Assembly (NCBI GenBank): GCA_015068085.1
Contig: SVLF01000002.1
Span: 39,861-103,860, forward strand
DNA length: 64,000 bases
Direction of reading: 5' to 3'
From: Oscillospiraceae bacterium
GTDB lineage: Bacteria > Bacillota > Clostridia > Oscillospirales > JAAYXM01
Shown here: positions 40,665 to 59,203 of the stretch, piece by piece
Numbering within the stretch: position 1 is the stretch's first letter
Layout: the number at the start of each line of letters is the position of its first letter
Notes under the pieces: model-generated
Database searches by the model: none
The model's input: only the letters and a program-made list of their open reading frames with translations
What the model was told of the DNA's origin: nothing
Position numbers and translations under genes: made by a program

Positions 40665-40740
<76 letters not shown>

Positions 40741-40831
40741 ATCTCTAACGCCCTGAAAGTGTTGTATTTCAATGCTTTCGGGGTTTTCTCTTTTTATAAC
40801 ACACTCAGGCATTATAACAAACAGCATATAT

Positions 40832-40861
40832 TTCTAACGGAATTCTAACCAACCTTCTAAC
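40832..40861 (+). promoter_or_regulatory. Three direct TTCTAAC repeats: candidate integrase arm-type binding sites
   Basis: TTCTAAC at 40832-40838, 40843-40849 and 40855-40861 (11-12-bp phasing), between attL and the int stop. Another TTCTAAC at 58988-58994 lies near attR, and CTCTAAC at 40743-40749. Confidence 0.5.
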
Positions 40862-40865
40862 GTAG

Positions 40866-42044: not shown

Positions 42045-42105
42045 TTTTAACTCCTTTCTCGTGAGTAGCCCACCACAAATATTATATACGATGGGCTGTA
42101 TAATT

Positions 42106-42294
42106 TCAAGCTGCGGTTTTGTTTATAAATTCAATTAAACAAGCTTTTGGAATACGATATTTTCCCGCTATCATAAACGACTTGATAACCCCGTCTTTCA
42201 GGAGTTTGTATGCTGTGTTTTTTCCTATATCTAAAGCTGTGCAAACATCCTGCACAGTCATAACATCACTATAATTTTTAAATATAATAATCAT
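42106..42294 (-). CDS. xis: Excisionase-family HTH DNA-binding protein
   Basis: 62 aa. MTVQDVCTALDIGKNTAYKLLKDGVIKSFMIAGKYRIPKACLIEF matches the excisionase/MerR-like HTH pattern. Located directly upstream of int. Confidence 0.75.
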   Translation of the reverse strand: MIIIFKNYSDVMTVQDVCTALDIGKNTAYKLLKDGVIKSFMIAGKYRIPKACLIEFINKTAA

Positions 42295-42355
42295 TTCTCC
42301 TTGTATATGTTTTTATAGGTGAGCGGACGGCACGATTAAACCGCCCGCTCGTGTT

Positions 42356-45300: not shown

Positions 45301-47284
45301 TGCGGAGTTTTTCAAGTTCCTCTCCCTCAGTAAATGTAAGCTTGTCCTTGCTTTCAAGTTCTGCAAGTCTCTGTCGGGTGGTTTGAAGTTCGTCATTCAA
45401 TCCCTGTAATTCGGATTTTATATTTGAATACTCTGACTTTAAATTAGAAAGTGCTTCGCGGGATTCTTCAAGTGATACGGTGAAGTAATCGACTGCTTTC
45501 ACTATACCATAAATTCCTAATGCCACCACCGTTGCCATTCCAAGCGGAGAGGAAATCCAAGCCATTGCTTGTCTACCCAACTGCTCTGTGACAAGTCCTA
45601 TTGCAGTGCCGAGACTTCCTTCAGCGACACCGACAGCGAGAGTATCAGCTATGATTGAACGAGCGCGAATTCCACGCCACAGTCTTCCTGTCAGCGCAAG
45701 AGCCGTATTTACGAGAACTATTTGGCTAATTAGCCGACCTGTCGGCGAATCCATCGCGTCTATAGCGGATACTAACAGGTCTAACGAGTTCTTGACGGTC
45801 TCTACGTTAGACATATTTGCTATGTACTCAGCCCACTCTGCTGATACCTGCTTGCTTTTTGCGCTCCACGAATCAAGATATATCTCATTCTCTCTTAATG
45901 CGCTCCCGCTCGAATTTGCAGTTATCTCTATCGCTTTTTTAACATCATTCCAATTTTCAATTACGGATATAAATGCATTCGACTGTCGTTTATTGCTGAT
46001 ACTCTCAGCCAATGCACTCTGCTGTATGGATGATAAACTCTCCCATTTATCCGCTATATCTTCAAGAACTCTCATTGGATTTCTGAGTTCGTTTTGTCCA
46101 TTTACAACTTCTCGAATTTGGATTCCGATTGAGTTAAGTGTTTTCTCTGCCTTCGCAAGCTTGTCCGCATCAATGACTTCACCGGTCTCTAAATCGGTAC
46201 CACGAATTTGTGACAGGCTCATAATTATTGTGCGCCAAGCACGGCTCATTTCCTCACCGCTTCGCTGAGTCTTTGCAGTGGCTGTTCCGATGATAGCTGC
46301 ATAGTCTTGAGCTGAAAGTCCGGCTTGTGCAAACATGCTACCTGATACAGTTACACCTGAAGCGAGTTTTTCAACATCTGTTGCTGTGCGATTTGACAAT
46401 TCGTTAAACATATCAAGAATTTTTGTAAGTTCTTGAATATTTCCGTTCAATTGCCATGCCGCATCTGACGAGACGATGAACTCATTTGCAAGTTCATTTT
46501 CGATATCTCCTGTGTTTTCGGAAAGAAGGGCAAGTTCGCTCAATGCTGATGAGTTATTTCCATATCCGGCTTTTGCGAATCGCTCTGTGCTTTCTGCATA
46601 TTCCGATGCCAAACGCCCATATTTAGAAGCGCTCTTAAAGGCATCATCAGTAATGGTTTTTATTTCTTCTTTACTTGCCCCAGTAACCTTACGATAACCA
46701 ACCATAGCATCGTCAACAGCCTTAAGTTCCCGGTATGCCTCAGTGATTTTATTTATAGTTTCGTTAAGAAGTCGGTACTGAATAATATATTGTAGTCCGC
46801 GCCCTAACCCCGCAACGAAATCGTTAGTCGCGTTACCCGCGTTCCTAAGGTGCTCGTGAGTGTGCCTTACATTTTCATTTACCTCTTGTGTAATGTTGCG
46901 ATTGACAGTTAATGTTCTGTTTTCTGTTGCCAATGCTTGCACCGCACGGTTTTCTGTTTGGAGAGTCCGCTCCCGCTCTACCGCGATCTGTTGAGCTATT
47001 CGCTGTTGTTCACTTAACGCCCTGATGCGCTCTGTTTCGAGACGGTAAGATTGTTGGCTTTGAGTTAAATTCGCGTTAATATTAATATTGGAATTCTGAA
47101 TTCTTCTCGCGGTCTGCTCAAGCCTTTCTAACTGCGCTATACAATTGTTTACCGAGTTCGTATTGAATGTCAGTGTAATGCGTTGATTATTTAGCCGATT
47201 AATAATATTCCTGACTTGATTTTCTACATTAGTAGCTGACTGAGGATTCAGCACTAATTGAAGCCTTATAATGTCGTCTCCCAT
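42356..47284 (-). CDS. Phage tail tape-measure-like protein (TP901-type core)
   Basis: 1642 aa, long coiled-coil-rich. The core ..NRTATDVEKLASGVTVSGSMFAQAGLSAQDYAAIIGTATAKTQRSGEEMSRAWRTIIMSL.. matches the TMP core as I recall it. It is followed by hydrophobic helices (..LISQIVLVNTALALTG.., ..MATVVALGIYGIVKAV..) and a Ser/Gly tract near the C-terminus. Confidence 0.8.
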   Translation of the reverse strand: MGDDIIRLQLVLNPQSATNVENQVRNIINRLNNQRITLTFNTNSVNNCIAQLERLEQTARRIQNSNININANLTQSQQSYRLETERIRALSEQQRIAQQIAVERERTLQTENRAVQALATENRTLTVNRNITQEVNENVRHTHEHLRNAGNATNDFVAGLGRGLQYIIQYRLLNETINKITEAYRELKAVDDAMVGYRKVTGASKEEIKTITDDAFKSASKYGRLASEYAESTERFAKAGYGNNSSALSELALLSENTGDIENELANEFIVSSDAAWQLNGNIQELTKILDMFNELSNRTATDVEKLASGVTVSGSMFAQAGLSAQDYAAIIGTATAKTQRSGEEMSRAWRTIIMSLSQIRGTDLETGEVIDADKLAKAEKTLNSIGIQIREVVNGQNELRNPMRVLEDIADKWESLSSIQQSALAESISNKRQSNAFISVIENWNDVKKAIEITANSSGSALRENEIYLDSWSAKSKQVSAEWAEYIANMSNVETVKNSLDLLVSAIDAMDSPTGRLISQIVLVNTALALTGRLWRGIRARSIIADTLAVGVAEGSLGTAIGLVTEQLGRQAMAWISSPLGMATVVALGIYGIVKAVDYFTVSLEESREALSNLKSEYSNIKSELQGLNDELQTTRQRLAELESKDKLTFTEGEELEKLRKQNNELERQKDLLEMQEKIKLRETNKAFVETMSKDVDVFTEYRKDADGNISFGNSTSASGSDTSYSVATEKEFIEQSFKEIERLRNELSTASTEKEKERIQKQINDLQEYYNKKNTEWQTDSDGIEYIASPQTEDERKVNEWLDFINDFQDKMAIAMGGTDAKTNAFNRIVDNWQFDDVVQGLQDLGKQGKVTAEMLKDPAYSGFIQKLVDIGFISGKTDDDLLQVANAFNGVGQSAQDARKELTKYAEAKNGVIAKKLNTESDIRALIALANAAGASADALNRLEIMRQNLLPGASKDAKRRGNYIKRTIEDGTFNWGFTPLKAEDYIDNSGGSSSGDVSSKSSTDKDKPDKADPTDAIINRIASNVEALERQGEIIDNQLDMVDAEKEYDKYVELTNKALDNRLKTIEASKVAQKELSKEAQKIRDKYKGINVDSFFHANGEFTEAYNRYYNSFTSKAKQEAFEDDMKMIQEFKKSWFEYYDDIMGLEKEVFDLRKDLQEAHYDHLSNLIDQLERHAELQEKQSEQEKEYYDYLIEKTQALLDIKKAQFSLENKLISAQREAEKALATSKIGSEYLDEETRKLVYNDDDYALEMDKIKEISDYVEGLTDDYISDINRLGTNEIYKAEEITAQYERRLAIKEKELEIVQAEVDLQKKQDAFNNILAEKNIRQIVDGKWVWTHDTDQLRQATEDLADAKAQVEQLEREKTQLEYTNSLEARIGRWQLEQEAIDLAMEDLHDKIEDFSTKVELLKDPLDNFADIVNELTAELGNINIESYTSGGSSSGSGSSSGSSSSSGRWGSVNPNANVGSVVQQMMNNSTKWHVSDSTTKAELHATNQKLAASIGADYNPSNGKYYQNGKPLYDSGGVLKGLGGIKATEKDEAVLSPSLTEKILTPENNLLFDRFANNLETIFNANTLRPLADMFNIPKPNVGLSKNISDRAVTNNYNMNGNVNITESNDIEDTLRRLLHTVQAKSLNN

Positions 47285-47298
47285 GGCTCACTCCTTTC

Positions 47299-47751
47299 TT
47301 ATGCTTCGGTCTTCATTTCATCAAGCTTTTCTATCAGCTCGTCTTTGCTCTTATTCAATTTTTCAATGTTCTCGGGTGTAACTTCTGACTTGATAGCCTC
47401 GTTAATGCGAGCCATAATATCATTCTCACGAGTAATGACATTCTTAATTTCATCTTCAAGCATAGCCTTGAACACCCTTACATCCTCAATGAAGCGATTC
47501 TTCCCGGTGCCTACATTGCTTTCTGAAATATTGCAATTATCAAAATCAGAAATAGACATCATCTCATCTTCCTTAATGTCAACAGCCTTAAGAAGTCGAC
47601 CTACTGCAACTGTCTTTATGTAAAGCTGCTTCTTCAGTGAGTTTATAACCGTAATGCCGTCTTCGTTTTTCTCTGTGCAATTCTCAGCCCCTATAAGTGC
47701 GAGCTTATAAAGCTCTGTAAGGCTTGTTCTTTTATAATTAATCTTATCCAT
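47299..47751 (-). CDS. Hypothetical protein (150 aa), directly upstream of the tape-measure gene
   Basis: Intact ORF, 14 nt from the TMP start, with an SD. The position would fit a tail assembly chaperone, but I see no sequence support. Confidence 0.45.
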   Translation of the reverse strand: MDKINYKRTSLTELYKLALIGAENCTEKNEDGITVINSLKKQLYIKTVAVGRLLKAVDIKEDEMMSISDFDNCNISESNVGTGKNRFIEDVRVFKAMLEDEIKNVITRENDIMARINEAIKSEVTPENIEKLNKSKDELIEKLDEMKTEA

Positions 47752-47767
47752 ATTTTCCTCCTAAAAA

Positions 47768-48217
47768 TCATTTTATATAACTTTTTAATAGCTTATTGGC
47801 TATTTTCTCTGCGTCTTTCTTCGTTTTCGATATTATTTTAAACTCTTCGCCGTACCGCGGGTTATATTTGCTTTTAAAACCATCCTCTAGCGCATCAACT
47901 ATTCCATTTACAAACGGTTTGCCATCGAATCCCATATGGGCACTAAATCCCGCTCGACTTCTCGGATGAATTTTTGTCTCATCGAAGAAAACTTCAATGG
48001 TATAGTCGCAGAGGGCATTTTTGGTTATGCGACCATCAACAGCAGATATAAGGTCGTATGTGCGCTCATAATCTGAAGGCAAATAAGTCCCATAAAAGTC
48101 ATCATTTAGTCTTCTTAATAGTTCTTCTCTTGTTTCAATCATGATTTTTTTAGCCATTGCGCTTAATTGCAAGTCGTGCTTTCGCACGATTTTATCTATT
48201 TGTTGCTGAATACCCAT
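47768..48217 (-). CDS. Hypothetical protein (149 aa)
   Basis: Intact ORF tightly packed in the same operon. No motif recognised. Confidence 0.45.
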   Translation of the reverse strand: MGIQQQIDKIVRKHDLQLSAMAKKIMIETREELLRRLNDDFYGTYLPSDYERTYDLISAVDGRITKNALCDYTIEVFFDETKIHPRSRAGFSAHMGFDGKPFVNGIVDALEDGFKSKYNPRYGEEFKIISKTKKDAEKIANKLLKSYIK

Positions 48218-48435
48218 TTTAGTTTCTCTCCGAAAGACATTCGCTTTGTCTCAGTGCTTTCACTTGATACTTTATCCTTTTGAGAAGTGTTTGGTTTGTA
48301 AATCTTGAGATTGTTGTCGTAATAAAGATTTATCCAATTTGTTTTGTCGCTTCCTTCATTGAATAGGAAATCAGGAATGACAAGCCAGCCGAGAGGCTTT
48401 AGTTCAGTGTTTTTTCCATTTTCATTTTTATTCAT
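48196..48435 (-). CDS. Hypothetical protein (79 aa)
   Basis: Intact ORF. Overlaps the next gene by 22 nt and starts 3 nt after the HNH gene stop. Confidence 0.4.
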   Translation of the reverse strand: MNKNENGKNTELKPLGWLVIPDFLFNEGSDKTNWINLYYDNNLKIYKPNTSQKDKVSSESTETKRMSFGEKLKWVFSNK

Positions 48436-48437
48436 AA

Positions 48438-49085
48438 TTAAATAATTCCTTTCTGTTTTAGATATTCTGTTGCAGATTGTGTAGTAGTTTCAACTCCGTT
48501 ATTAATCGGTATTAATCCAATCATATCTCCGTTTAAGCTTAGAAAAATATCGCACTTGCGTCCGTTGATTGCAAGCTCTAATTTTTTCGCACACTCTTCA
48601 CGCTCAGTGAGAGTTTCGAGCTTTGCAAAACGATGCAAGAGAGCATGAACGTTTTGATTAATCCTCAGAAGATTGCCCACTGCGTTATTGTCTTCTGAAT
48701 CCGGATTATAGCTTTTAATATGATGAATCACCGTTGGTTTGTTGTTGTCTGTCACGAATGCAGTTATCTTATCGCTGAAATACTCTCCTACAAGCCTGTG
48801 TACCGCATAAACTCTATTCTTGCCACTAATATTAATGCAGATGCAGTGCTTTTTCTCATTCAAGCCTTCACTATCATTGCTGTATGTCTGAGCGCGGAGC
48901 GACTGCTTCATAATTTTGATTCCTTTGGTTCCCACAGACAGTACTCTACCGCGATCAGTAATGAATAAGTGGCTCCTGTGGTTAATCATCTGCCTCGCTG
49001 ATTCATTTTCGAGTAAGACATCATTTTTATACTTATCAAAAAGCTCTTTATATTCTTGGTCTGTTAATTTTTTATCTCTTCCCAA
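48438..49085 (-). CDS. HNH endonuclease (phage homing-endonuclease type)
   Basis: 215 aa, TTG start after GAAGGAG. ..YAVHRLVGEYF...TVIHHIKSYNPDSEDNNAVGNLLRINQNVHALLH.. is an HNH (H-N-H) core. Confidence 0.7.
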   Translation of the reverse strand: MGRDKKLTDQEYKELFDKYKNDVLLENESARQMINHRSHLFITDRGRVLSVGTKGIKIMKQSLRAQTYSNDSEGLNEKKHCICINISGKNRVYAVHRLVGEYFSDKITAFVTDNNKPTVIHHIKSYNPDSEDNNAVGNLLRINQNVHALLHRFAKLETLTEREECAKKLELAINGRKCDIFLSLNGDMIGLIPINNGVETTTQSATEYLKQKGII

Positions 49086-49362
49086 TTTATTACTCCTTCA
49101 TATTTAAATTTATTTTTACTCAATCCCGGTACTTGAGCTGTTGACTTATGCAACTCAAGCCCATAAATGAGATTAAAGATTTATTTTCCTAACGAATTTT
49201 ACGCCAGTAAAATGAGTTAGAAGCATGAGGTTACGCAGTAACCGATTGCTATATAGCCGATAGGCTAAAGTGAATATTTATATCTAATTTTTATCATATT
49301 TTTAATACCTCTTCTCTTTAATAAAAATTTCTTGAAAACCGCATGATTACTATGTTTTTTGA

Positions 49363-49385
49363 AAAGTTTAGGAAGGTCGATTTCC
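49363..49385 (-). terminator. Hairpin immediately after the helicase-like gene
   Basis: Minus strand: TTAGGAA-ATCGACC-TTCCTAA followed by ACTTTTC. Confidence 0.5.
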
Positions 49386-50578
49386 TAAGCTACCTTCAGC
49401 GCTTGGTTATTTAACGACATATTTAACCAGTTTATCAGTAAATTTCTCATTCTTATTGATGGTATGTATATGTTTATCTCTTCGCCTTTGCGAATTGCGG
49501 ATCGCCATATAAACTGAAGCATCTCTGAGAGTGCATATAAGTCTTCATCAACATTGATGTTTTTTCGATAAAAGAATTGAGTTACTGCCGGATGAAGATA
49601 TATATTTACGCAATACGCAATATTATATGTTTCATCGTATTCATTAGTTGCTCTACAATTACAGGCTAAGAACTTGCTTGAATATCCTTTGCCTTTTAAT
49701 TTCGACTTAGCTGCTTTAAATGTAGTCCATAGTATAGAACTTGCAGGAGCTTTTACTATATTTTGAAAATAGTTATATATGTTATTTTTGATTTTCATTT
49801 GAGTTTTTGTATTGGTCTTTGCGTTGAACCATGTTTTTGAAAGTGATGTTAATTTCTGATTGAAGTTATCATTCAAGCTTCCTTCATATATGTTGATTTT
49901 CTCTATAAACTGTGTTGTATCAGGCACGAAATAATCAACTATTGCATAACTGTCATCCTTTTTAATTACACTCTTTTTCTCATACTGGAATTCATATAAA
50001 TCAAAGTAGTGTTTCAGTATACTTGCTTCAAATAAATATGTAAGAACATATATCTTATCAAACAAAGTGAATATATCAGGTGGATATTTCCATAAGAGCA
50101 ACTTTTGATTAATGTAAATCAAGCTTCTATTCTGCGCTAAGTCTCTTATTTCATTATATTTTGTATCATAATCTTTCTTGTCCTCATTCCAAATAATGTA
50201 CCCCTCATCATCAACAGTAACGCATCCACTGTTTTTCAGCAAATCCATATCGTTCTGTTTAACATCGTCATACGGCTCAATGACATTAAGCACTTCATCA
50301 AGTATCAATGTATAATGACCTTCTTTAATGCGTTGTTTGCTTTCTTCGTTCAGGTGTTTGAAAAGCTCGTGTGTGCAAGTTATGTCTTCTTGCCCCTCTA
50401 ACAGGTCATTGATGCTTTGAAGCTTGCCTTCTCCTTTGTTTAAGGGCTGCTTGAAACTTCTATTGGTGGATGTGATGATGCGGTCTACCTCTTTCAAGAA
50501 TGGCGTTATGTATAAGATATTATCGTATTGATTTTCGTTGATGTACTGTATGCTCCACTGAGTCTTCCCCGAACCCAT
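49385..50578 (-). CDS. SF2 helicase/ATPase-like protein (P-loop NTPase); N-terminus uncertain
   Basis: Walker A GSGKT at residues 2-6 of the annotated ORF, Walker B LILDEV, and a motif-VI-like QFIWRSAIRKG. The reading frame stays open about 44 codons further upstream (to 50710) and encodes the expected beta strand ITVIDAL before the P-loop, but contains no ATG/GTG/TTG. Confidence 0.65.
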   Translation of the reverse strand: MGSGKTQWSIQYINENQYDNILYITPFLKEVDRIITSTNRSFKQPLNKGEGKLQSINDLLEGQEDITCTHELFKHLNEESKQRIKEGHYTLILDEVLNVIEPYDDVKQNDMDLLKNSGCVTVDDEGYIIWNEDKKDYDTKYNEIRDLAQNRSLIYINQKLLLWKYPPDIFTLFDKIYVLTYLFEASILKHYFDLYEFQYEKKSVIKKDDSYAIVDYFVPDTTQFIEKINIYEGSLNDNFNQKLTSLSKTWFNAKTNTKTQMKIKNNIYNYFQNIVKAPASSILWTTFKAAKSKLKGKGYSSKFLACNCRATNEYDETYNIAYCVNIYLHPAVTQFFYRKNINVDEDLYALSEMLQFIWRSAIRKGEEINIYIPSIRMRNLLINWLNMSLNNQALKVA

Positions 50579-50710
50579 TAGGGCATCTATAACCGTTATG
50601 GTTTTTGCATTTGCGTTTGTTATATAAAATCCTCTCCTTTGTTTAATTCGTGTTGTATGGTTGCTTTTATGTTCTCTCCATTGGGAACACCTCCTTATAT
50701 TGTTCTCTCT

Positions 50711-50890
50711 TTAAATAAGCTTTAGCATATCGAGATAACATTTAATTCTATCTTCCGTTTCGACTGACAATCTTAAATCATCACTCAAGTAACGATACAT
50801 AGCTGTTGGACTAATCCCAGCTTTGCTGCAAAACTTCGTCATTGGTGCGCCGGTAAGTTCAAGAAATGTTTTTATTCTTTCTTTTAACAT
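50711..50890 (-). CDS. Small HTH protein (59 aa, XRE/Cro-like)
   Basis: Below the ORF-track cutoff. ATG 50890 follows GAAAGGAGAA. Translation: MLKERIKTFLELTGAPMTKFCSKAGISPTAMYRYLSDDLRLSVETEDRIKCYLDMLKLI, with a clear helix-turn-helix (MTKFCSKAGISPTAMYRY). Confidence 0.6.
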   Translation of the reverse strand: MLKERIKTFLELTGAPMTKFCSKAGISPTAMYRYLSDDLRLSVETEDRIKCYLDMLKLI

Positions 50891-51163
50891 GATGTTCTCC
50901 TTTCTACATATTTATATCTTTCTACCTATTAACTAAACAGGTGAAAAAATAGCAAGAGGAGAGAAGCGGGAAGACATATCACAATCGAATTCGATATTAC
51001 AAGTGGAGCTGTAACCTCTCTCCTCTATATCTCAATAGAGATGTGAAAGGATGCATCTCATCTTACGACGGTGCAAACTACTTTCAGCAGTGTCGTATAC
51101 TAACACTCATCCCTACACTTGCTATAGGTCACAACTTTGATGTTTTTGTCAAATTTCCCGTAA

Positions 51164-51970
51164 TTATTTTGATTTTCTTTTCGCGTCGCATTTTTTACAA
51201 ATATTTTTGCGCCCGTCTTTGTTTCTCTTTTCCTTTGCGAATTCAGTTAATGGCTTGACTTCACCGCAACACTTACATGTTTTTTCAGTGTCGCATGGTA
51301 TTTCGATTATTTTTGTCCCGGTTATCATTTTTGCAAGATTTTTCAGTATAGTTCTTTGCTGGCTCTCGGTTAGTCCTATTTCTGTCTTGATTTCTTTAGA
51401 TGTTTTACCGCTTGTCTTAAGGCGTAGAAAATCTACTTCTGCTTTTGCGCGAATACCATACCCGTTTAGGAATGATACAACTTCTTTGCTATTTACGTCG
51501 CTAAAATAAACATCATCCGTAAGAAGGGCGTTTTCGATAATGGTATATGTATTTCCTTCTTCATCATCCCGCTCGTAGTAACTCATAGGTCTCACTTCTA
51601 TAGTTTTTTTGTTGTGTTGATGTTTTTCCGTTCTATTGAGGCTTTCGTCAAATGCTTCCCGAGTTTGAGTAAGTCCGGATTCATCCATTGCCAGTATGTA
51701 ATCAGCCGCAAGATCAAGCGGATGGTAATTATATTCTATCTTTGTACCGCCTTGCTCTTTTTTGTAAGCGTAAGAAATCCTATCTAATATCGCTCTTTTG
51801 TCAACATCCTTCTCGCACACATTAAAGAAGTCATATACCTCCCGCTCGTTTAATAATGTACGCACACACTCGACTCTTGTATCAATATTTTTTATGCTTC
51901 TGTCAAATGTTCCTACATTTATAAATTGTTTTGCCTGTCTCTGTAAATCAGAGTTGTAATTTTTTGTCAT
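51164..51970 (-). CDS. Sigma-70 region-4-like HTH protein with C-terminal CxxC...CxxC zinc ribbon (putative element transcription factor)
   Basis: 268 aa. ..DFLRLKTSGKTSKEIKTEIGLTESQQRTILKNLAKM.. resembles sigma region 4/LuxR-type HTH. The C-terminus is KTCKCCGEVKPLTEFAKEKRNKDGRKNICKKCDAKRK. Confidence 0.5.
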   Translation of the reverse strand: MTKNYNSDLQRQAKQFINVGTFDRSIKNIDTRVECVRTLLNEREVYDFFNVCEKDVDKRAILDRISYAYKKEQGGTKIEYNYHPLDLAADYILAMDESGLTQTREAFDESLNRTEKHQHNKKTIEVRPMSYYERDDEEGNTYTIIENALLTDDVYFSDVNSKEVVSFLNGYGIRAKAEVDFLRLKTSGKTSKEIKTEIGLTESQQRTILKNLAKMITGTKIIEIPCDTEKTCKCCGEVKPLTEFAKEKRNKDGRKNICKKCDAKRKSK

Positions 51971-52171
51971 TCGCTCAAAGCTCCATTCGAATTATTTCAG
52001 CAAAATTTATTGCCTACTCTTATATTCTCTGTTTGAAAAAAATTTTTGAGCGAATTTTCATCAATTTAGATTTGCGCGGGGGATTTGGTGTTGAAATTAT
52101 GATTTCATTGTGTTTTTTGAAAAATGAATAAAAAATTTAAGCCATGAAATTAATCATGACTTTAATCAGTA

Positions 52172-52915
52172 TCAACCTTTGTATTCACTTAATATTTTAT
52201 GCACAAGCCCTTTTGAGCACTGCATTTCGTCTTTTATCCTGTCTAAAGTATACCCTGCATCCTTCAACTCAATAATTTTCTTTTTTTGAGATTCATTAAA
52301 CTTTTCCGGTCTGCCTATTGATGAATATTTTTTCTTTATAGTTGAAAGTTCAGTCTTTAAACAATAATTTTCCCTTTCTAGTTCTCTAACCTGCTTTGAC
52401 ATTAATAACAATGTATTTTCAAGTGTCTCAATCTCGTCTGGTTTTAAGGAAAAACCCATATCATTCAGTTTTGAAATCACTTCCTCAAATGAGTTTTGAC
52501 CTAAATTGCGAACCTTTATCAAATCGCTTTTTGTTCTGTTTAATAAATCCTCCACTGTATTTATTCCTGCTCGTCTAAGGCAGTTATGAGTGCGAACAGA
52601 GAAGTCCATTTCCTCAATTTGTTTAAATCGTTCATTTTCTTTTTTGACTATTTCAGGTTGCTGAATCACTGTTTTGTGTTCATTTTCTTTTTTGACCAAG
52701 TCACTTCGCTGAGCTAATCCTCTAATGAAAGTTGTTAAACAATATATGTTGTCAATCATATCCTTTAGCCTGTCTTTGTCTTCTGTAATAAGGGTGTGCT
52801 TTCCTTGATAACCGTAACTTCTTAATTCATCCTCCAGCGACTGAAATGCACCATGTAGATTTAATATAGCTCCGCTGAGATTTGACTTTGCCACTACAAA
52901 CACCTCTTCGTTCAT
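52172..52915 (-). CDS. Chimeric regulator: RNA polymerase alpha C-terminal-domain-like (HhH) module plus resolvase-type HTH
   Basis: Residues ~99-157, [58 protein letters not shown], align with the RpoA alpha-CTD (E. coli ..[55 protein letters not shown]). The C-terminus [42 protein letters not shown] resembles the HTH of the element's own serine recombinase. The start may be GTG 52894, after GAAGAGGTG. Confidence 0.7.
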
Positions 52916-52929
52916 TAAACATTATGAAC

Positions 52930-52958
52930 ATTATATCAAAAATTTGTCGCACCGTCAA
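52930..52958 (-). promoter_or_regulatory. Near-consensus promoter for the leftward operon
   Basis: Minus strand: TTGACG (52958-52953), 17-nt spacer, TGaTATAAT (-10 at 52935-52930). Flanked by GTTCAT/ATGAAC inverted repeats (52910-52929). Confidence 0.65.
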
Positions 52959-52983
52959 TAAAATTGTTCAAATTCTTTTATGA

Positions 52984-53010
52984 ACAAAAAGCACCCGAAC
53001 CAATGGGTGC
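52984..53010 (-). terminator. Minus-strand intrinsic terminator upstream of the leftward promoter
   Basis: Minus strand: GCACCC-ATTGGTTC-GGGTGC followed by TTTTTGT. Confidence 0.6.
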
Positions 53011-53135
53011 TAAATTTAAGATTATATTATCCGGTTGAAATACTCTTCAAAGATTCTTTGTCTATTTATTTAACAGTTGCATATAATAGCAATGTAAACA
53101 AAATCCTTTATTAAGATAGTATCTGCACAAAACTA

Positions 53136-53164
53136 TTGACAAAAAAGGATTTTTAGTTTACAAT
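53136..53164 (+). promoter_or_regulatory. Consensus sigma-A promoter driving the structured RNA
   Basis: TTGACA (53136-53141), exactly 17 nt, TACAAT (53159-53164). Confidence 0.75.
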
Positions 53165-53170
53165 ATCAAT

Positions 53171-53336
53171 AGAAGATGATAGCTTTGACTATTCATCGTC
53201 ACGTTGAAGCAGTTAGCCGGTTCAGCATCGGTTAATTGTGGAGTGTCGGTTTGGGTTCGGTGCTACCGCAGGCTGAATAGGTTTTAAACCGAAAGAAAGC
53301 ATCAAGATAAGCCTCACTTTTGTGGGGCTTTTTCTT
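53171..53336 (+). ncRNA. Unclassified structured RNA / leader ending in an intrinsic terminator
   Basis: Hairpin GATGA..TCATC (53175-53197). Long-range helix CCGGTTCAGC (53217-53226) / GCTGAATAGG (53272-53281). CGGT-GCT-ACCG hairpin (53258-53268). Alternative TCGGTTT/AAACCGA pairings. Terminator AAGCCTCAC-TTTT-GTGGGGCTT plus TTTCTT (53309-53336). It matches no riboswitch class I can recognise by eye. Confidence 0.55.
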
Positions 53337-53350
53337 ATGAGGAGTTTGAA

Positions 53351-53959
53351 ATGGGATTATTTTTAGAAGCTGCAAAATGCTGGAACAGTTTGCAAAATAC
53401 GTCTTACTGTATAACATTTGGCAAAAATAAAAAATTAAAAAACATAAATCTCATATTTCGTGATGTCGATTTTGACCATCTCTCCGGTATTCATTATGCA
53501 GATGATGTTGATTTCAAATTACATAGAAATGAATATAGAGGGGATAAATTAATTCCGGCATTGCTCTCTCAAAAATTAGATGACGGATTGATAGAAAAAA
53601 GTAGTAACTGGGGTAAAATATCGGACAGGCTCTCAGCTGTAACTAACATATGTGATGTTTTAGAATCGAATTTCACGCTTTACTATTTTTCGCCAAACAG
53701 ACTTACCTTTCACTCGACCATCACAGCAGTGTATTTTTTGTACAGCGAACAGTTTTCAAACGGCATATTCTTATTTCTTGATAAAGAAGAGAACTGTTTT
53801 TATTGCAAGTCAGTGTTTAGCAAAGATGTAAGAGATTACTGCATAAATCAGACCAGACTGAAGGTACTTAAGAAAACAAAAATGGTCTGTGGCGAAGAAA
53901 AAACATTATTTGTGCATCCTAATTTTAAGGAAACGGAAAATGTCATATTAACTGTATAG
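53351..53959 (+). CDS. Hypothetical 202-aa protein, possible small nuclease/toxin-like protein
   Basis: SD GAGGAG 6 nt upstream. No signal peptide or TM segment. The segment NLIFRDVDFDHLSGIHYADD resembles, from memory only, the N-terminal motif of phage-associated barnase/EndoU/RelE-like (PBECR-type) nuclease domains. Unverified. Confidence 0.5.
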   Translation: MGLFLEAAKCWNSLQNTSYCITFGKNKKLKNINLIFRDVDFDHLSGIHYADDVDFKLHRNEYRGDKLIPALLSQKLDDGLIEKSSNWGKISDRLSAVTNICDVLESNFTLYYFSPNRLTFHSTITAVYFLYSEQFSNGIFLFLDKEENCFYCKSVFSKDVRDYCINQTRLKVLKKTKMVCGEEKTLFVHPNFKETENVILTV

Positions 53960-53966
53960 GATTGTA

Positions 53967-53996
53967 ACACTCTCATTTAGATGAGGGTGTTTTTTG
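53967..53996 (+). terminator. Rho-independent terminator of the 202-aa gene
   Basis: ACACTCTCAT-TTAG-ATGAGGGTGT followed by TTTTTTG. Confidence 0.8.
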
Positions 53997-54214
53997 TTTC
54001 TTCGATGTTCTAATTTTTGACTCGACGTGTGGATGGAACTGCTATACCGTTATCCGGAGAGAACGACGGTTTTATAAATGTAAACACAGCCCTGTACTGG
54101 CTTTTCCTCGGCATAACACACGCTAACACATAAACTTACATATTAAATATAATATACTCTAAAAACGCAATTCTGCGCCTGATACGGGTATTAGAACGCC
54201 CGCTCTGTTAGGTT

Positions 54215-54448
54215 TTAGGATTGCGTTTTTTCTTTGTCGTCTGGGATGTATTCAAGAATGTCTCCGACGTCGCAAGCTAGCAATCTGCATATAGTATCAA
54301 GCGTTTTCCATGACGGTAAATCTTTAGCTCTTATTTTTTGTATCATTGCTTCCCCTATTAATTTTTCTTTTCGCAATACATATGCTGAAAAATTTTTTTC
54401 TTTTAATTTCTCCAAAACATCAACTTTATATTTTATCAAGTTATACAC
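54215..54448 (-). CDS. XRE-family HTH repressor-like protein (77 aa)
   Basis: ..LRKEKLIGEAMIQKIRAKDLPSWKTLDTICRLLACDVGDILEY.. is the typical short XRE/HTH_26 pattern. Divergent from the rightward operon across an operator-rich region. Confidence 0.7.
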   Translation of the reverse strand: MYNLIKYKVDVLEKLKEKNFSAYVLRKEKLIGEAMIQKIRAKDLPSWKTLDTICRLLACDVGDILEYIPDDKEKTQS

Positions 54449-54501
54449 CTCTTTTAAGTGATTATATCAAACAATTCTTTTTATGTCAATAAGCACCATT
54501 T

Positions 54502-54598
54502 TTGCATACACTTATGTTAAGTGTACAATATACACAAGAAATAAGTGTGTACTTTGTGCAATCCGTCAATTGAAATACACTCAAAATAGGTGTATACT
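54502..54598 (+). promoter_or_regulatory. Switch region: two rightward promoter candidates overlapped by TACACTTA-type operators
   Basis: O1 is the perfect palindrome TACACTTA-TGT-TAAGTGTA (54507-54525), overlapping TTGCAT-N16-TACAAT. O2 is TAAGTGTGTACTT (54542-54554). O3 is TACACTCAAAATAGGTGTA (54576-54594), lying within TTGAAA-N17-TATACT. Confidence 0.6.
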
Positions 54599-54658
54599 TA
54601 TATCAAGCTCAAAGGGCAACACCCGAGAGCAAATAATATTTAAAGGAGTTGTTCACAA

Positions 54659-54934
54659 ATGACAACACAGAACATCAACGAGAAAATCAGAGAATTAAAA
54701 GAACTCACGAGAATGGCTGAAGAGATTGAAGCCGAGCAAGAAGCCATAAAAGATGAGCTTAAGCGAGAAATGGAGCTTCGGCAGGTTGATGAGATTTCAA
54801 CAAATGAGTATAAAGTCCGATATAAGCAGGTGACATCAACGAGATTTGACAGTACAGCATTTAAAAGCAAATACGCAGATTTATATGAACAGTTCACAAA
54901 GACAACTACATTCAAAAGATTTTCAATAGCTTAA
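54659..54934 (+). CDS. Hypothetical coiled-coil protein (91 aa), first gene of the rightward operon
   Basis: SD AAAGGAG upstream. N-terminal coiled coil, then ..RFDSTAFKSKYADLYEQFTK... I have seen this kind of small protein in Firmicutes mobile elements, but I cannot name a family. Confidence 0.5.
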   Translation: MTTQNINEKIRELKELTRMAEEIEAEQEAIKDELKREMELRQVDEISTNEYKVRYKQVTSTRFDSTAFKSKYADLYEQFTKTTTFKRFSIA

Positions 54935-55064
54935 TAAAAAATGCCCTTATAAGAGCGGTAACTCTTATATAAGGGCAACGTAACACAAACCAAGTAAAGG
55001 AGCGGTTACATATTTATTATATCACTGACCGCTCCAAACGTCAAACAAAAAGGAGTAATTAAAA

Positions 55065-55562
55065 ATGTTGGTATCATGGTTTAGTAGTCCGCAGACAGTC
55101 GAAGAGCTGAAAAAGCAATACAAGCGGCTTGCTTTCAGGCATCACCCCGACAGAGGCGGCAACGCAGAGCATATGAAAGAAATAAATGCCGAATATGATA
55201 AATTCTTTGAACGGCTCAAGAACATTCACAGCACATCAGACGGCAAGACATACACAGCAAAGACAGCGACAGACGAAACGCCGGAAGAGTTCAGAGAGGT
55301 TATAAACCGCTTAATTTCTCTTGAAGGTGTGCAAGTGGAAATATGTGGTAGTTGGCTGTGGGTGTCGGGAAATACATATCCACACCGCGAAACACTGAAG
55401 CACTTAAAATTCCGCTTTAGTAAGAGCAAAACAGCATGGTATTTCCATGATGAGGCTTACCGCAAGCGTAATAATAAGACTTTCACGCTGGATGAGATAC
55501 GAGATTTATTCGGCTCTCAGATGGTCACAAGTCAGCCACAGTTAAAGCTTGAAATTATCTAA
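55065..55562 (+). CDS. J-domain (DnaJ-like) protein
   Basis: 165 aa. ..LKKQYKRLAFRHHPDRGGNAEHMKEINAEYD.. contains the HPD tripeptide of J domains. The C-terminal domain (..ICGSWLWVSGNTYPHRETLKHLKFRFSKSKTAWYFH..) is of unknown function. Confidence 0.75.
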   Translation: MLVSWFSSPQTVEELKKQYKRLAFRHHPDRGGNAEHMKEINAEYDKFFERLKNIHSTSDGKTYTAKTATDETPEEFREVINRLISLEGVQVEICGSWLWVSGNTYPHRETLKHLKFRFSKSKTAWYFHDEAYRKRNNKTFTLDEIRDLFGSQMVTSQPQLKLEII

Positions 55563-55620
55563 TTGAAAGGGCGGGAACACCACCCGCCCACACACAAAGA
55601 TAAAGATTGGAGATTTAAAT

Positions 55621-55893
55621 ATGTTTGAACTTGGAAAATTAACAGCTACCTGCGGGGTATCAAAGGCAATGGAACAAGATGAGCGTTTTTCATATGACGT
55701 AGTCGATGCCATAAGGCGTTTTATTACCGGTGATTGGGGCGACGTCGTAAAAGAAGATGCACAGAAAAATGCCTTTGCGCTTGAAAACGGTTTGCGAATA
55801 GTCGGAGCATATCCGACAGTCCGCGGAAAAATATGGATTATAACAGAAGCAGATAGATCGGCAACAACTGTTTTGTTTCCATCGGAGTATTAA
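55621..55893 (+). CDS. Hypothetical protein (90 aa), plasmid/ICE-type small conserved protein
   Basis: Intact ORF with an SD. The C-terminal ..KIWIITEADRSATTVLFPSEY is a motif I associate with small mobile-element proteins. No function assigned. Confidence 0.5.
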   Translation: MFELGKLTATCGVSKAMEQDERFSYDVVDAIRRFITGDWGDVVKEDAQKNAFALENGLRIVGAYPTVRGKIWIITEADRSATTVLFPSEY

Positions 55894-55954
55894 ATATAGG
55901 CAGTTTTGCGGTTCTGCAGAAAAACCGCACTATACAAAAGAAAGGACATTCAAA

Positions 55955-56137
55955 ATGAGGTTTATATATTATCTGTTTATCGGTGCAGGAGTTCTGCTGT
56001 TATTCGGGACAGCCGGAGCATCAGACTGCGGAAGCATCACTATGAGAGAAATAATCAGGCAATTCGCTGTCGCGTGGTTACTTATCTCTTACGGAATCAA
56101 AAGTCTTAAATTACTAGAAAGGAGGGCTTGCAGATGA
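55955..56137 (+). CDS. Small membrane protein (60 aa)
   Basis: SD AAAGGA upstream. Two hydrophobic helices (FIYYLFIGAGVLLLFGTAG; FAVAWLLISYGI). Confidence 0.4.
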   Translation: MRFIYYLFIGAGVLLLFGTAGASDCGSITMREIIRQFAVAWLLISYGIKSLKLLERRACR

Positions 56138-56328
56138 GTTCAATGGATGCCATGCTTACTATGACACAGCACCAGGCAAATTCAAGACCTACAACGTCAG
56201 ACATTAAGGCTACGAGGCGAATACTGAAGGATTTTGGAATCCGTAATATCAAGATACCCGACTGTAAAACAGTTGCCGAGCTGATGCGTTTCCAGACAGC
56301 GACAATACATAATAAATTATATGCATAA
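56134..56328 (+). CDS. Hypothetical protein (64 aa)
   Basis: ATG 56134 is preceded by GAAAGGAGGG. No motif recognised. Confidence 0.4.
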   Translation: MSSMDAMLTMTQHQANSRPTTSDIKATRRILKDFGIRNIKIPDCKTVAELMRFQTATIHNKLYA

Positions 56329-56339
56329 AGGAGAAAAGG

Positions 56340-56960
56340 ATGTTTAAGATGCCCAATAAGCAAAAAGCGGAGTTGAGAAAGATATATCTTGAAAGGGCTG
56401 ACAGATTAGTTAAAGAACTGGCTCAGACAAATAAAGAAATTGATCGATTGGGAACAACAAAGAAAAAGAGTAAAACCGAGCGGCGCAACAAACGACTCAC
56501 CAAAAAGTATATATGGAAATTGAAATGCTTAGAGTTCGGAGAAGACTTAAAAACGTTGAAAAGCTTAGGAATCAATCTCTACTTCGACGAAACAAAAGAC
56601 ACAGGGACATGGGATTTGAAAAAGTTGGTTGTCCCGGCACCCAATAAGTGCACCGAACAACAAATTTTATCCGAAGCAGTAAAACATGTGCTTATGTTGA
56701 ATTACAGCCATGAGGTTTATTTAAACTGGCTAAGAGAAGTCAACGACGAAAAGCTACAAATAACTCCACGAGAGGAATCTGCACTCTCCTACATAGCAGC
56801 AAGAGTAACAGACGGTGCAAAGTTTTTTAATATGGAACAAGTTGCCGAGCTGATGCATCTTATGCTTTTCACTCAGCCGGAAATATTACAAACAGAGCAG
56901 TATAAGAGATGGGAAGAAATTATGTGTCAACAAAAAAAGGATGAAACAGATGGAAAATAA
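56340..56960 (+). CDS. Hypothetical protein (206 aa)
   Basis: SD AAAGGAGAAAAGG upstream. Basic N-terminal region. No motif recognised. Confidence 0.5.
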   Translation: MFKMPNKQKAELRKIYLERADRLVKELAQTNKEIDRLGTTKKKSKTERRNKRLTKKYIWKLKCLEFGEDLKTLKSLGINLYFDETKDTGTWDLKKLVVPAPNKCTEQQILSEAVKHVLMLNYSHEVYLNWLREVNDEKLQITPREESALSYIAARVTDGAKFFNMEQVAELMHLMLFTQPEILQTEQYKRWEEIMCQQKKDETDGK

Positions 56961-57207
56961 TAAATCGTTATTTCAATTAGCCGAAGAAACAGAAGATTGT
57001 GGCAATGTATTTGCAAAAGTCCGTTCAATTGCTGATATATTAGTAGAAGCACTTTCTGTGGAAGGAAGCGCATTTACAAATGATACGCTTTTAAACGTCG
57101 CATACATACTCAGAGAGTATAGCGATATAGCTGAAGCAAAAATCAACGCACTGGAAAAAGATTTGCGCGGAGCTTTTGATAGAAAAGTACAAGGTGCAAA
57201 CCACTAA
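56941..57207 (+). CDS. Hypothetical protein (88 aa)
   Basis: Overlaps the previous gene by 20 nt. Followed by the hairpin GGGCGGT-GTAACA-ACCGCCC (57217-57236). Confidence 0.45.
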   Translation: MKQMENNKSLFQLAEETEDCGNVFAKVRSIADILVEALSVEGSAFTNDTLLNVAYILREYSDIAEAKINALEKDLRGAFDRKVQGANH

Positions 57208-57237
57208 CGAAAAAAGGGCGGTGTAACAACCGCCCAA

Positions 57238-57340
57238 TACTTGAAAACTAACAGTGTCAAAACTTGAAAGAATTTACACTTTTATCAACCGTATGAATCC
57301 ATGCGTGTTTGAACGGTGTCAAAACTGGGTGTCAAAAGTA
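57238..57340 (+). promoter_or_regulatory. Repeat cluster upstream of the recombinase: candidate res / recombinase binding sites
   Basis: GTGTCAAAAC at 57254-57263 and 57317-57326, and GTGTCAAAAG at 57330-57339. CTTGAAAAC (57238-57246) and CTTGAAAG (57263-57270). The TCAAAAC core is reminiscent of Hin/Gin-type half sites as I recall them. Confidence 0.4.
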
Positions 57341-57363
57341 ACTTATGAAGAGAGGTCATTTTC

Positions 57364-57927
57364 GTGATATATGGGTATTGCAGAGTAAGCACCAAAGGAC
57401 AATTAGACGGCAACAGCATAGAAGAACAAACCCAAAGCATTAAAGGAAGATATTCAGAATCGGAAATTATCATAGAGAGCTATTCAGGAGCAAAGGAACG
57501 CCCTTTATTTAACGCGCTACTAGAAAAGATGTGTACCGGAGATATTCTTGTGGTAACAAAGCTTGACCGATTTTGCAGAACGACAAAAGAGGGATTGACC
57601 TATATAGACAACCTCATGAGTAAAGGTGTGCGGATTCATATCCTTAACATGGGGCTTATAGAAGACACCCCTATGGGAAGGCTGATAGTTACAAACCTGT
57701 TAGCGTTTGCAGAATTCGAAAGATCAATGATTATTGAGCGTACTCAGTCGGGCAAAGCAATAGCGAAGCAAAACCCCAACTTTAAAGAAGGTAGACCTAA
57801 AAAGTTTAATAGTGAACAAATTAGACTTGCTATGCAGTTATTAGAGAGTCATACCTATAAAGAAGTGGAAAATATGACCGGGATAAGCAAAAGTACATTG
57901 ATACGGGCAAAAAGATGCATGAAATAA
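57364..57927 (+). CDS. Serine recombinase (resolvase/invertase family)
   Basis: 187 aa, GTG start. The [12 protein letters not shown] catalytic-Ser motif, ..[12 protein letters not shown].., and C-terminal [18 protein letters not shown]...[14 protein letters not shown]. Confidence 0.9.
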
Positions 57928-57993
57928 TTGGCATAATTTGTATATTTTTTTAAAAAGTAGGACACAATAAATGTAAATATATAACCATCAGGA

Positions 57994-58668
57994 GTGTTCT
58001 ACTTGGAATTGACAATAGAGCAGTATCTTATTCCTAATTGTAGTCTTATCATTGACGAATTGAATATAGCTTATAAAAACTGTTCTGCAGATGAAATGAA
58101 AAAAGTTGCAGATAAAAGTTTCAGTGAAACTGATATGATGATGAGAGTTGGGTATCCGTTTAAAAACATGGCAAGGTATACAACTAAGACAGAAGATAGT
58201 GATGATTCGGGTAAAACTAATCATGATATTTTCATTGAGAATAAACGCTTTAAGATAGAACTAAAGTATTTGCGCAGCTGGAGAACCCAATCAGGAACGT
58301 ATTCGTGCAGCAAAGGGTGGAAGGAAATACAGTACGATTTTAATTGGTTGCTAAGTGAGATCAACAACGATAATAAAGGAAAGTCAGCGTTTATAATAGC
58401 GTGGTTTAATTGCGTTGACTCTTTTTCTAAGATAATTCAGTTAGGGGAAGGCAAGGGAGGTAAGCCACTTGTAAATGAAAGTAAGTTGTGCTTTTTCCCT
58501 TTTCTTATAAGACCACAGCTCCCTACAAGAACAGCAGACTTAGAGTACAACTATGAGATAGCTTATCAACGACTTCAAATTACTCCTATTGGATACAAAG
58601 GGAAAGAGTGTAACTGTACATTTGTTGGTAAGGAAAGTGATTGCTTCCACTTTGCAATTTACTATTAA
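57994..58668 (+). CDS. Hypothetical protein with PD-(D/E)xK-like nuclease motif
   Basis: 224 aa (the start may be TTG 58003, after AGGAG). ..NHDIFIENKRFKIELKYL.. fits a D...(E/I)-x-K restriction-endonuclease-fold core. No partner methyltransferase lies nearby. It is the last gene before attR. Confidence 0.45.
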   Translation: MFYLELTIEQYLIPNCSLIIDELNIAYKNCSADEMKKVADKSFSETDMMMRVGYPFKNMARYTTKTEDSDDSGKTNHDIFIENKRFKIELKYLRSWRTQSGTYSCSKGWKEIQYDFNWLLSEINNDNKGKSAFIIAWFNCVDSFSKIIQLGEGKGGKPLVNESKLCFFPFLIRPQLPTRTADLEYNYEIAYQRLQITPIGYKGKECNCTFVGKESDCFHFAIYY

Positions 58669-58697
58669 TTTCGACAAAATAGCATAAAATATAGAAA

Positions 58698-58734
58698 AAT
58701 TGCACTTTGAAGTTAAACAAGGTGCAATTCTTTT
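58698..58734 (+). terminator. Rho-independent terminator
   Basis: AATTGCAC ... GTGCAATT stem followed by CTTTT. Confidence 0.65.
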
Positions 58735-59158
58735 AATTTGAAAAAGTTATAAAATCGGCGATAAACCTTAGTTTTGTCGAACTCACCCGCGAATGGTTTT
58801 AGGCAAAATTGACTTTGAAAAACATAGTAATTAAGCCGTTTTTTGCTTGCTTAATAGTATGTGTTTTCTTGAAATCATTGTTCGTTTTAATATTAAAAAA
58901 TGCAGTATGATGATGTATAATCAATTCAATATTCAACATCGTTAAATACTCAATTAAAGATACATCAAATTTGGTGGACTACCCTTCTTCTAACACTTTT
59001 TCTATCCGATTTCCCGAAAAAGAAATGCTGTTCCGATGCGATTTTCAAGACTTACAACCTCTTTGAACCCGCTTAAATGCTAGGTTTCCCAACTCAACAT
59101 AATTCGATTTAAATTCAGTTAATCTAATGTAATAAATAGAATTTTCGATTGGTAAGGA

Positions 59159-59203
59159 TGAGGTCGGCGGTTCAAATCCGCCTAACAGCTCCAAAAGCCT
59201 TGA
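59159..59203 (+). repeat. attR core (orphan copy of the tRNA-Thr 3' 45 nt)
   Basis: Identical to 40696-40740, with no tRNA 5' half in front of it. Confidence 0.9.

Follow-up and report, generated by a model that had tools for sequence, protein, structure and literature searches.

The open reading frame (ORF) at 52172-52915 (minus strand, stop codon included) in the 64,000-nucleotide stretch of Oscillospiraceae bacterium contig SVLF01000002.1 analysed here, which we call the window, encodes a protein of 247 amino acids (aa) that carries a true RpoA-type alpha-subunit C-terminal domain (alpha-CTD) of RNA polymerase. The protein is made up, in order, of an N-terminal helical domain (N-domain), the alpha-CTD, a leucine zipper, and a helix-turn-helix (HTH) domain, and its gene is probably a self-contained and autoregulated cassette within a phage-related tRNA-Thr island of about 18.4 kb. 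From the comparisons described below, the protein appears to be an autoregulated mobile-element HTH protein that is novel through its alpha-CTD payload. The best explanation, which we hold with moderate confidence, is that an HTH dimer would bind the palindrome TGTTCA-N10-TGAACA at the promoter of its own cassette and that the alpha-CTD would act there as a tethered minor-groove DNA contact.

The assignment of the alpha-CTD is carried by profile, sequence and structure comparisons. Pfam RNA_pol_A_CTD (PF03118) matched residues 91-151 with 80.4 bits (E=8.2e-23, cut-off 23.8) whereas HHH_5 reached only 15.6 bits in the Pfam scan of the same protein. In a sequence search of the PDB all 55 top matches were RpoA, as was every match with E < 0.1; the best were 8i23 (E=5e-22) and 7l7b, and residues 82-161 of the query aligned with residues 235-314 of the RpoA chain, an alignment that takes in the RpoA interdomain linker and the entire CTD. 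Similarity to 18 RpoA sequences extends to the very end of RpoA (SLKPDE in the query, SLKPDEE followed by the stop codon in P0005), and identity to the nearest RpoA CTDs is about 65%. By Pfam, PDB and Foldseek, the RpoA-derived segment, a linker-like stretch plus the alpha-CTD, occupies 52433-52672 on the minus strand (residues 82-161; core 52445-52621). This region of the AlphaFold model (predicted local distance difference test, pLDDT, 70-83) is a compact helical fold with two helix-hairpin-helix (HhH) motifs, and with Foldseek the model superposed on the B. subtilis alpha-CTD 1z3e_B with a template modelling (TM) score of 0.84 and a root mean square deviation of 2.4 A over 66 columns at 55% identity. 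The original prediction, made from the sequence by eye, had named an RpoA-like alpha-CTD here and a generic HhH repair motif as the thing to be set against it. The former is borne out, and the latter is ruled out by the 80 versus 15.6 bits, by the PDB matches to RpoA, and by the homology of the linker and the C-terminus. Unlike the CTD of RpoA, this domain is internal to a DNA-binding protein that has no alpha N-terminal domain: there was no Pfam match to the RpoA N-terminal domains (RNA_pol_L / RNA_pol_A_bac), the N-terminus is unrelated to RpoA, and the NCBIfam rpoA models all scored far under their cut-offs. With PADLOC, the query matched PglW through the alpha-CTD-like stretch only.

Residues of the domain can be read in E. 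coli numbering by adding a constant offset of 157 to the query. The DNA-binding 265 determinant of E. coli, which we take to be R265, N268, C269, G296, K298, and S299, is kept at five of six positions in all three members of the family that have the domain (R108, N111, C112, G139, and S142 in the query); the sixth, K298, is replaced by Asn, so that a check of this surface for conservation, which had been proposed together with that of the 261/287-like surface, found five residues kept and one changed. The equivalent of L300 is replaced by Phe. On the second surface, the equivalent of E. coli E261, the sigma contact, is D, N or G among the three members and the equivalent of E. coli 285-288 reads TKSD or TQSD as against TEED in Clostridial RpoA; there is an acidic EE-D patch in the window protein. 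At the position of B. subtilis Y263, which contacts Spx, the three members carry H, H, and Y. In 516 alpha-CTD domains taken from the best database matches, nearly all of them non-RpoA, R265, N268, and G296 are the best kept of the tabulated positions and position 261 drifts; tandem arrays of up to 12 alpha-CTD copies occur among many of these relatives, which we also count in favour of a DNA-contact role. Since the DNA-contacting residues are mostly kept and position 261 drifts, a minor-groove DNA contact is favoured, with modest confidence, over a sigma or activator contact. The proposals that the domain is a decoy or a surface for contacting RNA polymerase thus receive mixed support from the residue patterns.

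The alpha-CTD is followed by a leucine-zipper coiled coil at residues 162-200 (52316-52432, minus strand) that was delimited by heptad count and by the model helix. It has six heptads, in which 11 of the 12 a and d positions are hydrophobic, Asn183 sits at an a position, and AlphaFold models the zipper as one long helix over residues 159-199; the coiled coil that had been suspected between the two domains is therefore present. Residues 201-246 (52178-52315, minus strand) form a GRP arm and a three-helix HTH that HTH_7 and Foldseek place in the resolvase/paired class, with modelled helices at 208-219, 224-231, and 235-246 after the long helix. Pfam HTH_7 was matched by six of six tail homologues from profile position 1 (best E=5.5e-5), whereas the query tail itself gave 15.5 bits (E=0.019), under the 23.8-bit cut-off. 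Around GRPxKFN the tail has eight identities in 20 residues with the serine resolvase encoded in the same island (pairwise E=4e-4), and across all tails the G and R of the G201-R202-P203 arm are invariant and the recognition helix CSKGL.HKI is unchanged. A profile of the tail searched against the PDB found the PAI subdomain of Sleeping Beauty (E=0.011) and Pax6. A separate model of the tail (pLDDT 83.5) gave no significant Foldseek match (best E=0.067). Its Foldseek list begins with a gamma-delta resolvase/Hin chimaera and includes Pax6, the gamma-delta, Sin and Tn3 resolvases, Tc3, and Hin, with the resolvases at E=0.07-0.3, and the same list also holds response-regulator, MarR, Fis, and LuxR-type proteins. 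No match to the Resolvase catalytic domain (PF00239) was found in the window protein in a scan in which the resolvase of the island (57364-57927) scored 113.9 bits. Thus, the likeness of the C-terminal HTH to the serine recombinase of the island holds, with the query below threshold, and resolvase-type HTH is right at the level of fold or superfamily and not as formal Pfam membership. Taken as a whole, the structural reading of the original prediction, a mobile-element protein with an alpha-CTD, a coiled coil, and an HTH, is confirmed.

The N-domain, approximately residues 1-73 (52697-52915, minus strand), was delimited by alignment with P0004, the only other protein that has it. It is modelled by AlphaFold, at low confidence, as two long helices, and neither Pfam nor PDB similarity to it was detected. 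A 48-bp tandem DNA duplication (52630-52712, minus strand), found by repeat analysis, encodes VKKENEH...VKKENER; the two copies, 52630-52664 and 52678-52712, are 83% identical, and P0002 has one copy only. The duplicated VKKENE(H/R) motif noticed in the protein is thus a duplication in the DNA.

The gene is preceded by a sigma-A-type promoter, TTGACG-17-TGnTATAAT, at 52930-52958 (minus strand), which matches the consensus at 11 of 12 positions and agrees with the near-consensus promoter described before. Inverted repeats, GTTCAT/ATGAAC, had been said to flank it. They are present, and their extent was misjudged, because they are really parts of two 22-bp palindromes of the form TGTTCA-N10-TGAACA. 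The putative operator O1, (C)GTTCA-N10-TGAACA, at 52909-52930 adjoins the -10 hexamer and spans the start site, from about -7 to +15. The putative operator O2, a perfect TGTTCA-N10-TGAACA at 52965-52986, lies close to the -35 hexamer on its upstream side, from about -63 to -42. The two have a common 10-bp spacer and are 56 bp apart, and GTTCA-N6-14-TGAAC has only two matches in the entire window, both of them flanking this promoter. A tentative third operator-like site with one mismatch is found at 52677-52698 in the DNA coding for VKKENEH. Sites of this form, T(G/A)(G/T)TCA-N10-TGAACA in (V/F)KKENEH DNA, are also found at 702-723 of L006 and at 3306-3327 of L004, in alpha-CTD and DUF262 variants alike (L and P numbers denote loci and proteins), and could be intragenic operators or simply reflect common coding ancestry. 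A common 12-mer, AGATTTGCGCGG, at 52068 and 57159 was considered as a regulatory site and rejected; by our own estimate chance alone would give some ten exact 12-mer repeats in 19 kb, and the two copies are oppositely oriented with respect to the genes downstream of them.

No ribosome-binding site precedes the annotated ATG at 52915, which falls within O1. Reading the sequence further, we find a GTG at 52894-52892 with an AGAGG Shine-Dalgarno sequence at 52907-52903, 8 nt upstream (together 52892-52907, minus strand). This GTG is homologous to the start called for P0004 and is one codon from that of P0002, which is the more upstream of the two, and it is probably the real start rather than the ATG. 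An intrinsic terminator follows directly after the stop codon (52139-52162, minus strand), and a terminator hairpin upstream of the promoter (52990-53011, minus strand), which is conserved in L001, would shield the cassette from read-through. The gene, which had been taken to be the first one behind its promoter, is instead the only gene of a terminator-bounded cassette.

The relatives of the protein show which parts of this cassette belong together. Its alpha-CTD variants form three clusters, P0001, P0002, and P0003; P0001, under a Ruminococcaceae metagenome-assembled genome name, is identical to the window protein and recurs in the same gene context on 19 metagenome contigs. P0004 lacks the alpha-CTD and shares the N-domain, zipper, and HTH, while in P0012, P0014, P0015, and P0020 a DUF262/GmrSD_N domain stands ahead of the same zipper-HTH tail. 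A profile search of 5.8 billion proteins gave no further members of the tail family, a scan of GTDB species genomes returned none, and the sole IMG/VR match to the tail family (L010) was discarded as an unrelated protein. When the upstream regions of seven loci were aligned, most of the invariant columns belonged either to the two promoter hexamers (-35 and -10), which do not vary among the seven, or to the half-sites of O1, and the only part common to the seven proteins is the zipper-HTH tail. The window and L001, L002, and L006 retain O2, which is degenerate in L004 and L005, and the O1-O2 spacing is 55-56 bp in L001, L002, and L006. The 3' terminator is conserved in six loci and shows a compensatory change from CATGA/TCATG to CGTGA/TCACG. 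As judged from these alignments, the conserved unit consists of the promoter, operators, zipper, HTH, and terminator, and the N-terminal payload appears to be exchangeable. Because these elements recur with another payload, the alpha-CTD is best seen as a module added to a DNA-binding chassis that appears to be autoregulated. A conserved unit with a swapped payload implicates the HTH tail in operator binding and hence suggests autoregulation, and the earlier suggestion that the repeats are possibly the operators of this gene is strengthened in that the promoter and palindromes are kept wherever the same HTH tail is encoded, even with an unrelated N-terminus.

The cassette gene is also a recombination mosaic. 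Between the window and L006 (485-1228) identity is 60-77% over the first 240 nt and 85-100% over the remainder, which runs from the VKKENE region to the terminator. The synonymous divergence (dS) between the two differs by domain; it is highest in the N-domain (1.12), lower in the HTH (0.46) and the alpha-CTD (0.08), and 0 in the coil.

From these observations the following mechanism may be proposed. The zipper would make a parallel dimer whose two HTHs would bind TGTTCA-N10-TGAACA. Occupancy of O1 would block RNA polymerase, occupancy of O2 would take up the zone of the UP element, and by binding both the protein would hold its own level constant. In what we take to be the most likely reading, the captured alpha-CTD would serve as a tethered contact to A/T tracts in the minor groove that may strengthen or extend binding at the promoter and compete there with the alpha-CTDs of the polymerase itself.

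The position of O2 raises the question whether the protein is instead an activator. An HTH dimer at O2, which is centred near -52 and immediately upstream of the -35 hexamer, would set the alpha-CTD beside sigma region 4, and this surrogate alpha-CTD, which in the window protein has the acidic patch mentioned above, could recruit polymerase through a built-in activation surface. We consider this improbable; the position equivalent to E261 is not conserved in the three members, a promoter so close to the consensus requires no activator, O2 is present also in a DUF262 variant that has no alpha-CTD, and O1 overlaps the start site, which favours repression.

It could also be argued that the palindromes belong to another protein of the island, either the 59-aa HTH protein encoded at 50711-50890 or the small resolvase, for which they would be res-like sites, and that the alpha-CTD-HTH protein binds elsewhere. 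Homologues of the 59-aa protein are encoded in L002 and L004, and small resolvase genes are near the cassette in the same two loci. This explanation is nevertheless doubtful, because the sites travel with the gene in seven loci and four different genomic contexts, no homologue of the 59-aa protein is found in the 8.9 kb of L001, and the resolvases have different HTH types. The resolvases fit the invariant sites less well because they are only 26-27% identical between three element types, and res-like sites for the small resolvase were rejected on the ground that the resolvases differ between elements and the sites do not. The CI-like repressor of the island likewise fits less well because its own palindromes differ. 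It is the product of a gene of Cro/CI type (HTH_26; 54215-54448, minus strand) whose promoter (54489-54461) matches the consensus perfectly. The divergent control region beside this gene, the two lying within 54215-54660, contains overlapping ACACTTA / TAAGTGT palindromes with arms at 54507-54560, and their perfect core, TACACTTA-N3-TAAGTGTA at 54507-54525, is distinct from the TGTTCA sites.

Several observations weigh against an autoregulator with an alpha-CTD as DNA contact. The 59-aa HTH protein is conserved and could be the operator binder instead. Because P0004 has the same chassis without the alpha-CTD, the domain is not needed for the core function, and the promoters of the seven loci showed no A/T-tract feature by which the alpha-CTD variants stand apart. 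The Asn at the K298 position in all three members stands against a Lys that is invariant in 18 of 18 RpoA sequences. To take this substitution as proof of lost DNA binding would be too strong, since many other non-RpoA alpha-CTDs, that of the XRE fusion P0174 among them, have Asn here as well. Lastly, between the window and L006 the alpha-CTD has eight non-synonymous and three synonymous changes, only 11 in all, which gives a ratio of non-synonymous to synonymous divergence (dN/dS) of about 0.7, and because of this value, from small counts, constraint on the domain is not demonstrated. The same ratio, the existence of P0004, and the tiny size of the family would agree with a mere passenger domain, for which the 3' end of rpoA would have been captured recently and in frame and would be tolerated without having a function. 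We regard this as very improbable, because three lineages differing by as much as 20% all keep an intact frame and the residues critical to the fold, the identity to the closest RpoA is too low for a very recent capture, and independent alpha-CTD-HTH fusions recur elsewhere.

Such fusions were found in an exhaustive HMMER search of 1.84 billion cluster representatives (E<=0.001), in which 10,805 representatives matched, the majority by their alpha-CTD only; the 148 best-scoring of them, save the query and P0004, matched via the alpha-CTD and are mostly non-RpoA proteins. In 71 short matches the alpha-CTD is joined to Sigma70_r4 in 12 and to an XRE HTH_3 in one. At least 14 viral contigs of IMG/VR encode small non-RpoA alpha-CTD proteins, most of 127-320 aa (two of the ORFs are shorter or cut off), and one of these is a fusion of Sigma70_r4 and alpha-CTD. 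Bacillus phage Goe8 encodes a 210-aa alpha-CTD protein (gp5) 2 kb from the end of its genome, and the record has the gene twice, as would be expected of a terminal repeat. Non-RpoA alpha-CTD proteins are therefore abundant and include Sigma70_r4 and XRE-HTH fusions and small phage proteins, which bears on how common alpha-CTD and HTH fusions are in phages, a matter that the original prediction had raised. In P0040, P0049, P0061, P0077, and P0084, members of a recurrent non-RpoA family, a conserved N-terminal Cys-rich segment (MTGKEKCKLLRQIRKEIAE...CPKCD) is followed by two alpha-CTD copies; we know of no description of this family. PHROGs gave no useful annotation for the context of the phage alpha-CTD proteins in L017 and L019, and in the literature on PF03118, RNA_pol_A_CTD, and alpha-CTD fusions and mimics we found no functional study of such proteins.

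The island that holds the cassette (40696-59194) lies between the copies of a 46-bp perfect direct repeat, attL at the 3' end of tRNA-Thr (40696-40741, plus strand) and attR (59149-59194, plus strand), and its G+C content is lower than that of the flanks. It encodes a tyrosine integrase, the Cro/CI-type repressor, the small serine resolvase, and a drum RNA with a PBECR4 nuclease. A 1642-aa tape-measure-like gene adjoins the integrase gene and is preceded by two genes of about 150 aa, and the related elements L004 and L001 retain the tape-measure gene or its remnant; no capsid, portal, terminase or other tail family was matched among the island ORFs scanned. The island may be a satellite or a prophage remnant.

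Divergent from the cassette is the pair at 53136-53959, which consists of the drum RNA (Rfam RF02958, 78 bits; 53199-53307, plus strand), with its own promoter-like site and terminator, and directly downstream of it the PBECR4 (barnase/EndoU/RelE-like) gene at 53351-53959. Drum RNAs were described as being strongly associated with one nearby-encoded protein family (PMC5737381, 2017), and the pairing seen here may be that association. The gene upstream of the cassette varies; in place of PBECR4 in the window there is a HicA-like gene of 72 aa in L001 (17-235) and a RelE/HigB-like gene of 78 aa in L006 (1-234), both identified by eye from the sequence, and this position resembles a cargo hot spot occupied by toxin- or defence-like genes. 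Downstream, L001 has a gene for a 206-aa protein with a C-terminal HTH that is sigma-region-4-like by eye, and homologues of it directly follow the cassette in L006 and L008 and lie about 2.3 kb beyond it in L004. In the window, the downstream genes include those for a 268-aa protein with a C-terminal Cys-rich Stc1/endonuclease-VII-like motif (51164-51970) and for a 397-aa P-loop protein (GSGKT; phrog_2467; precomputed YonV_C match) at 49385-50578.

This setting bears on another explanation, namely, that the protein is an integrated decoy or sensor in which the alpha-CTD is bait that copies a polymerase surface targeted by phage or host factors. The targets would be alpha-binding activators or enzymes that modify alpha R265, and their binding would either titrate the factor or release the protein from its operators. 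The constant chassis with its swappable N-terminal payload agrees with this, as do the moron-like character of the unit, which has its own promoter and terminator, the restriction of operator sites to its own promoter save for three weaker one-mismatch intragenic matches, and the retention of the R265 equivalent. The neighbours are toxin- or defence-like (PBECR4 with drum RNA, HicA-like, RelE-like), and the alternative payload matches the candidate defence protein NsnA in PADLOC. SPO1-like phages keep host-takeover genes near the genome end, and it is near the genome end that Goe8 has its duplicated alpha-CTD gene. On the other hand, the surfaces of known partners are not conserved, neither Y263 nor 285-288, and we consider a decoy unlikely, although it deserves to be kept in mind. 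Its broader form, in which any exchangeable payload, the alpha-CTD here and DUF262 elsewhere, would be bait on an autoregulated DNA-bound chassis that captures or reports phage or host factors targeting RNA polymerase alpha, is more doubtful still. If an integrated decoy is at work, it would either shield the polymerase of the host or turn on the island upon the arrival of a helper phage.

The preferred reading, an autoregulated cassette with the alpha-CTD as DNA contact, has partial parallels in known systems. With the small serine recombinases (gamma-delta, Tn3, Sin, and Hin) the protein shares the long helix, GRP arm, and three-helix HTH, but it has no catalytic serine domain, its HTH_7 score is below threshold, its zipper has canonical heptads, and its tail is in sequence at least as close to the HTH of paired and Sleeping Beauty PAI as to resolvases. 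The cassette protein would bind inverted-repeat sites at its own promoter much as Tn3-family resolvases do at res. The Sigma70_r4 and XRE HTH_3 fusions and the small phage alpha-CTD proteins likewise combine an HTH with an alpha-CTD in a single small protein and occur in phage or mobile settings (L017 from IMG/VR, P0174, P0025, and Goe8 gp5), but they differ in HTH class, domain order, and N-terminal parts and lack the zipper-HTH tail and the operators. Prophage moron cassettes and Stl of the Staphylococcus aureus pathogenicity islands (SaPI) are similar in being stand-alone promoter-gene-terminator units or in combining a constant DNA-binding part with a variable module; there is no sequence relationship to them, and the repressor and sensing roles of the cassette are inferred.

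It is at the alpha-CTD that UP elements and many activators dock on bacterial RNA polymerase. In the present case a mobile element has taken a copy of this docking domain into what appears to be a site-specific DNA-binding protein, and it is not an isolated case. The cassette offers an entry point to such proteins, because it has defined DNA sites, a natural control without the alpha-CTD in P0004, and a payload-swap variant with DUF262. If the domain should prove to be a decoy or a surrogate alpha, it would represent a new way for mobile elements to interfere with host transcription or to borrow from it.

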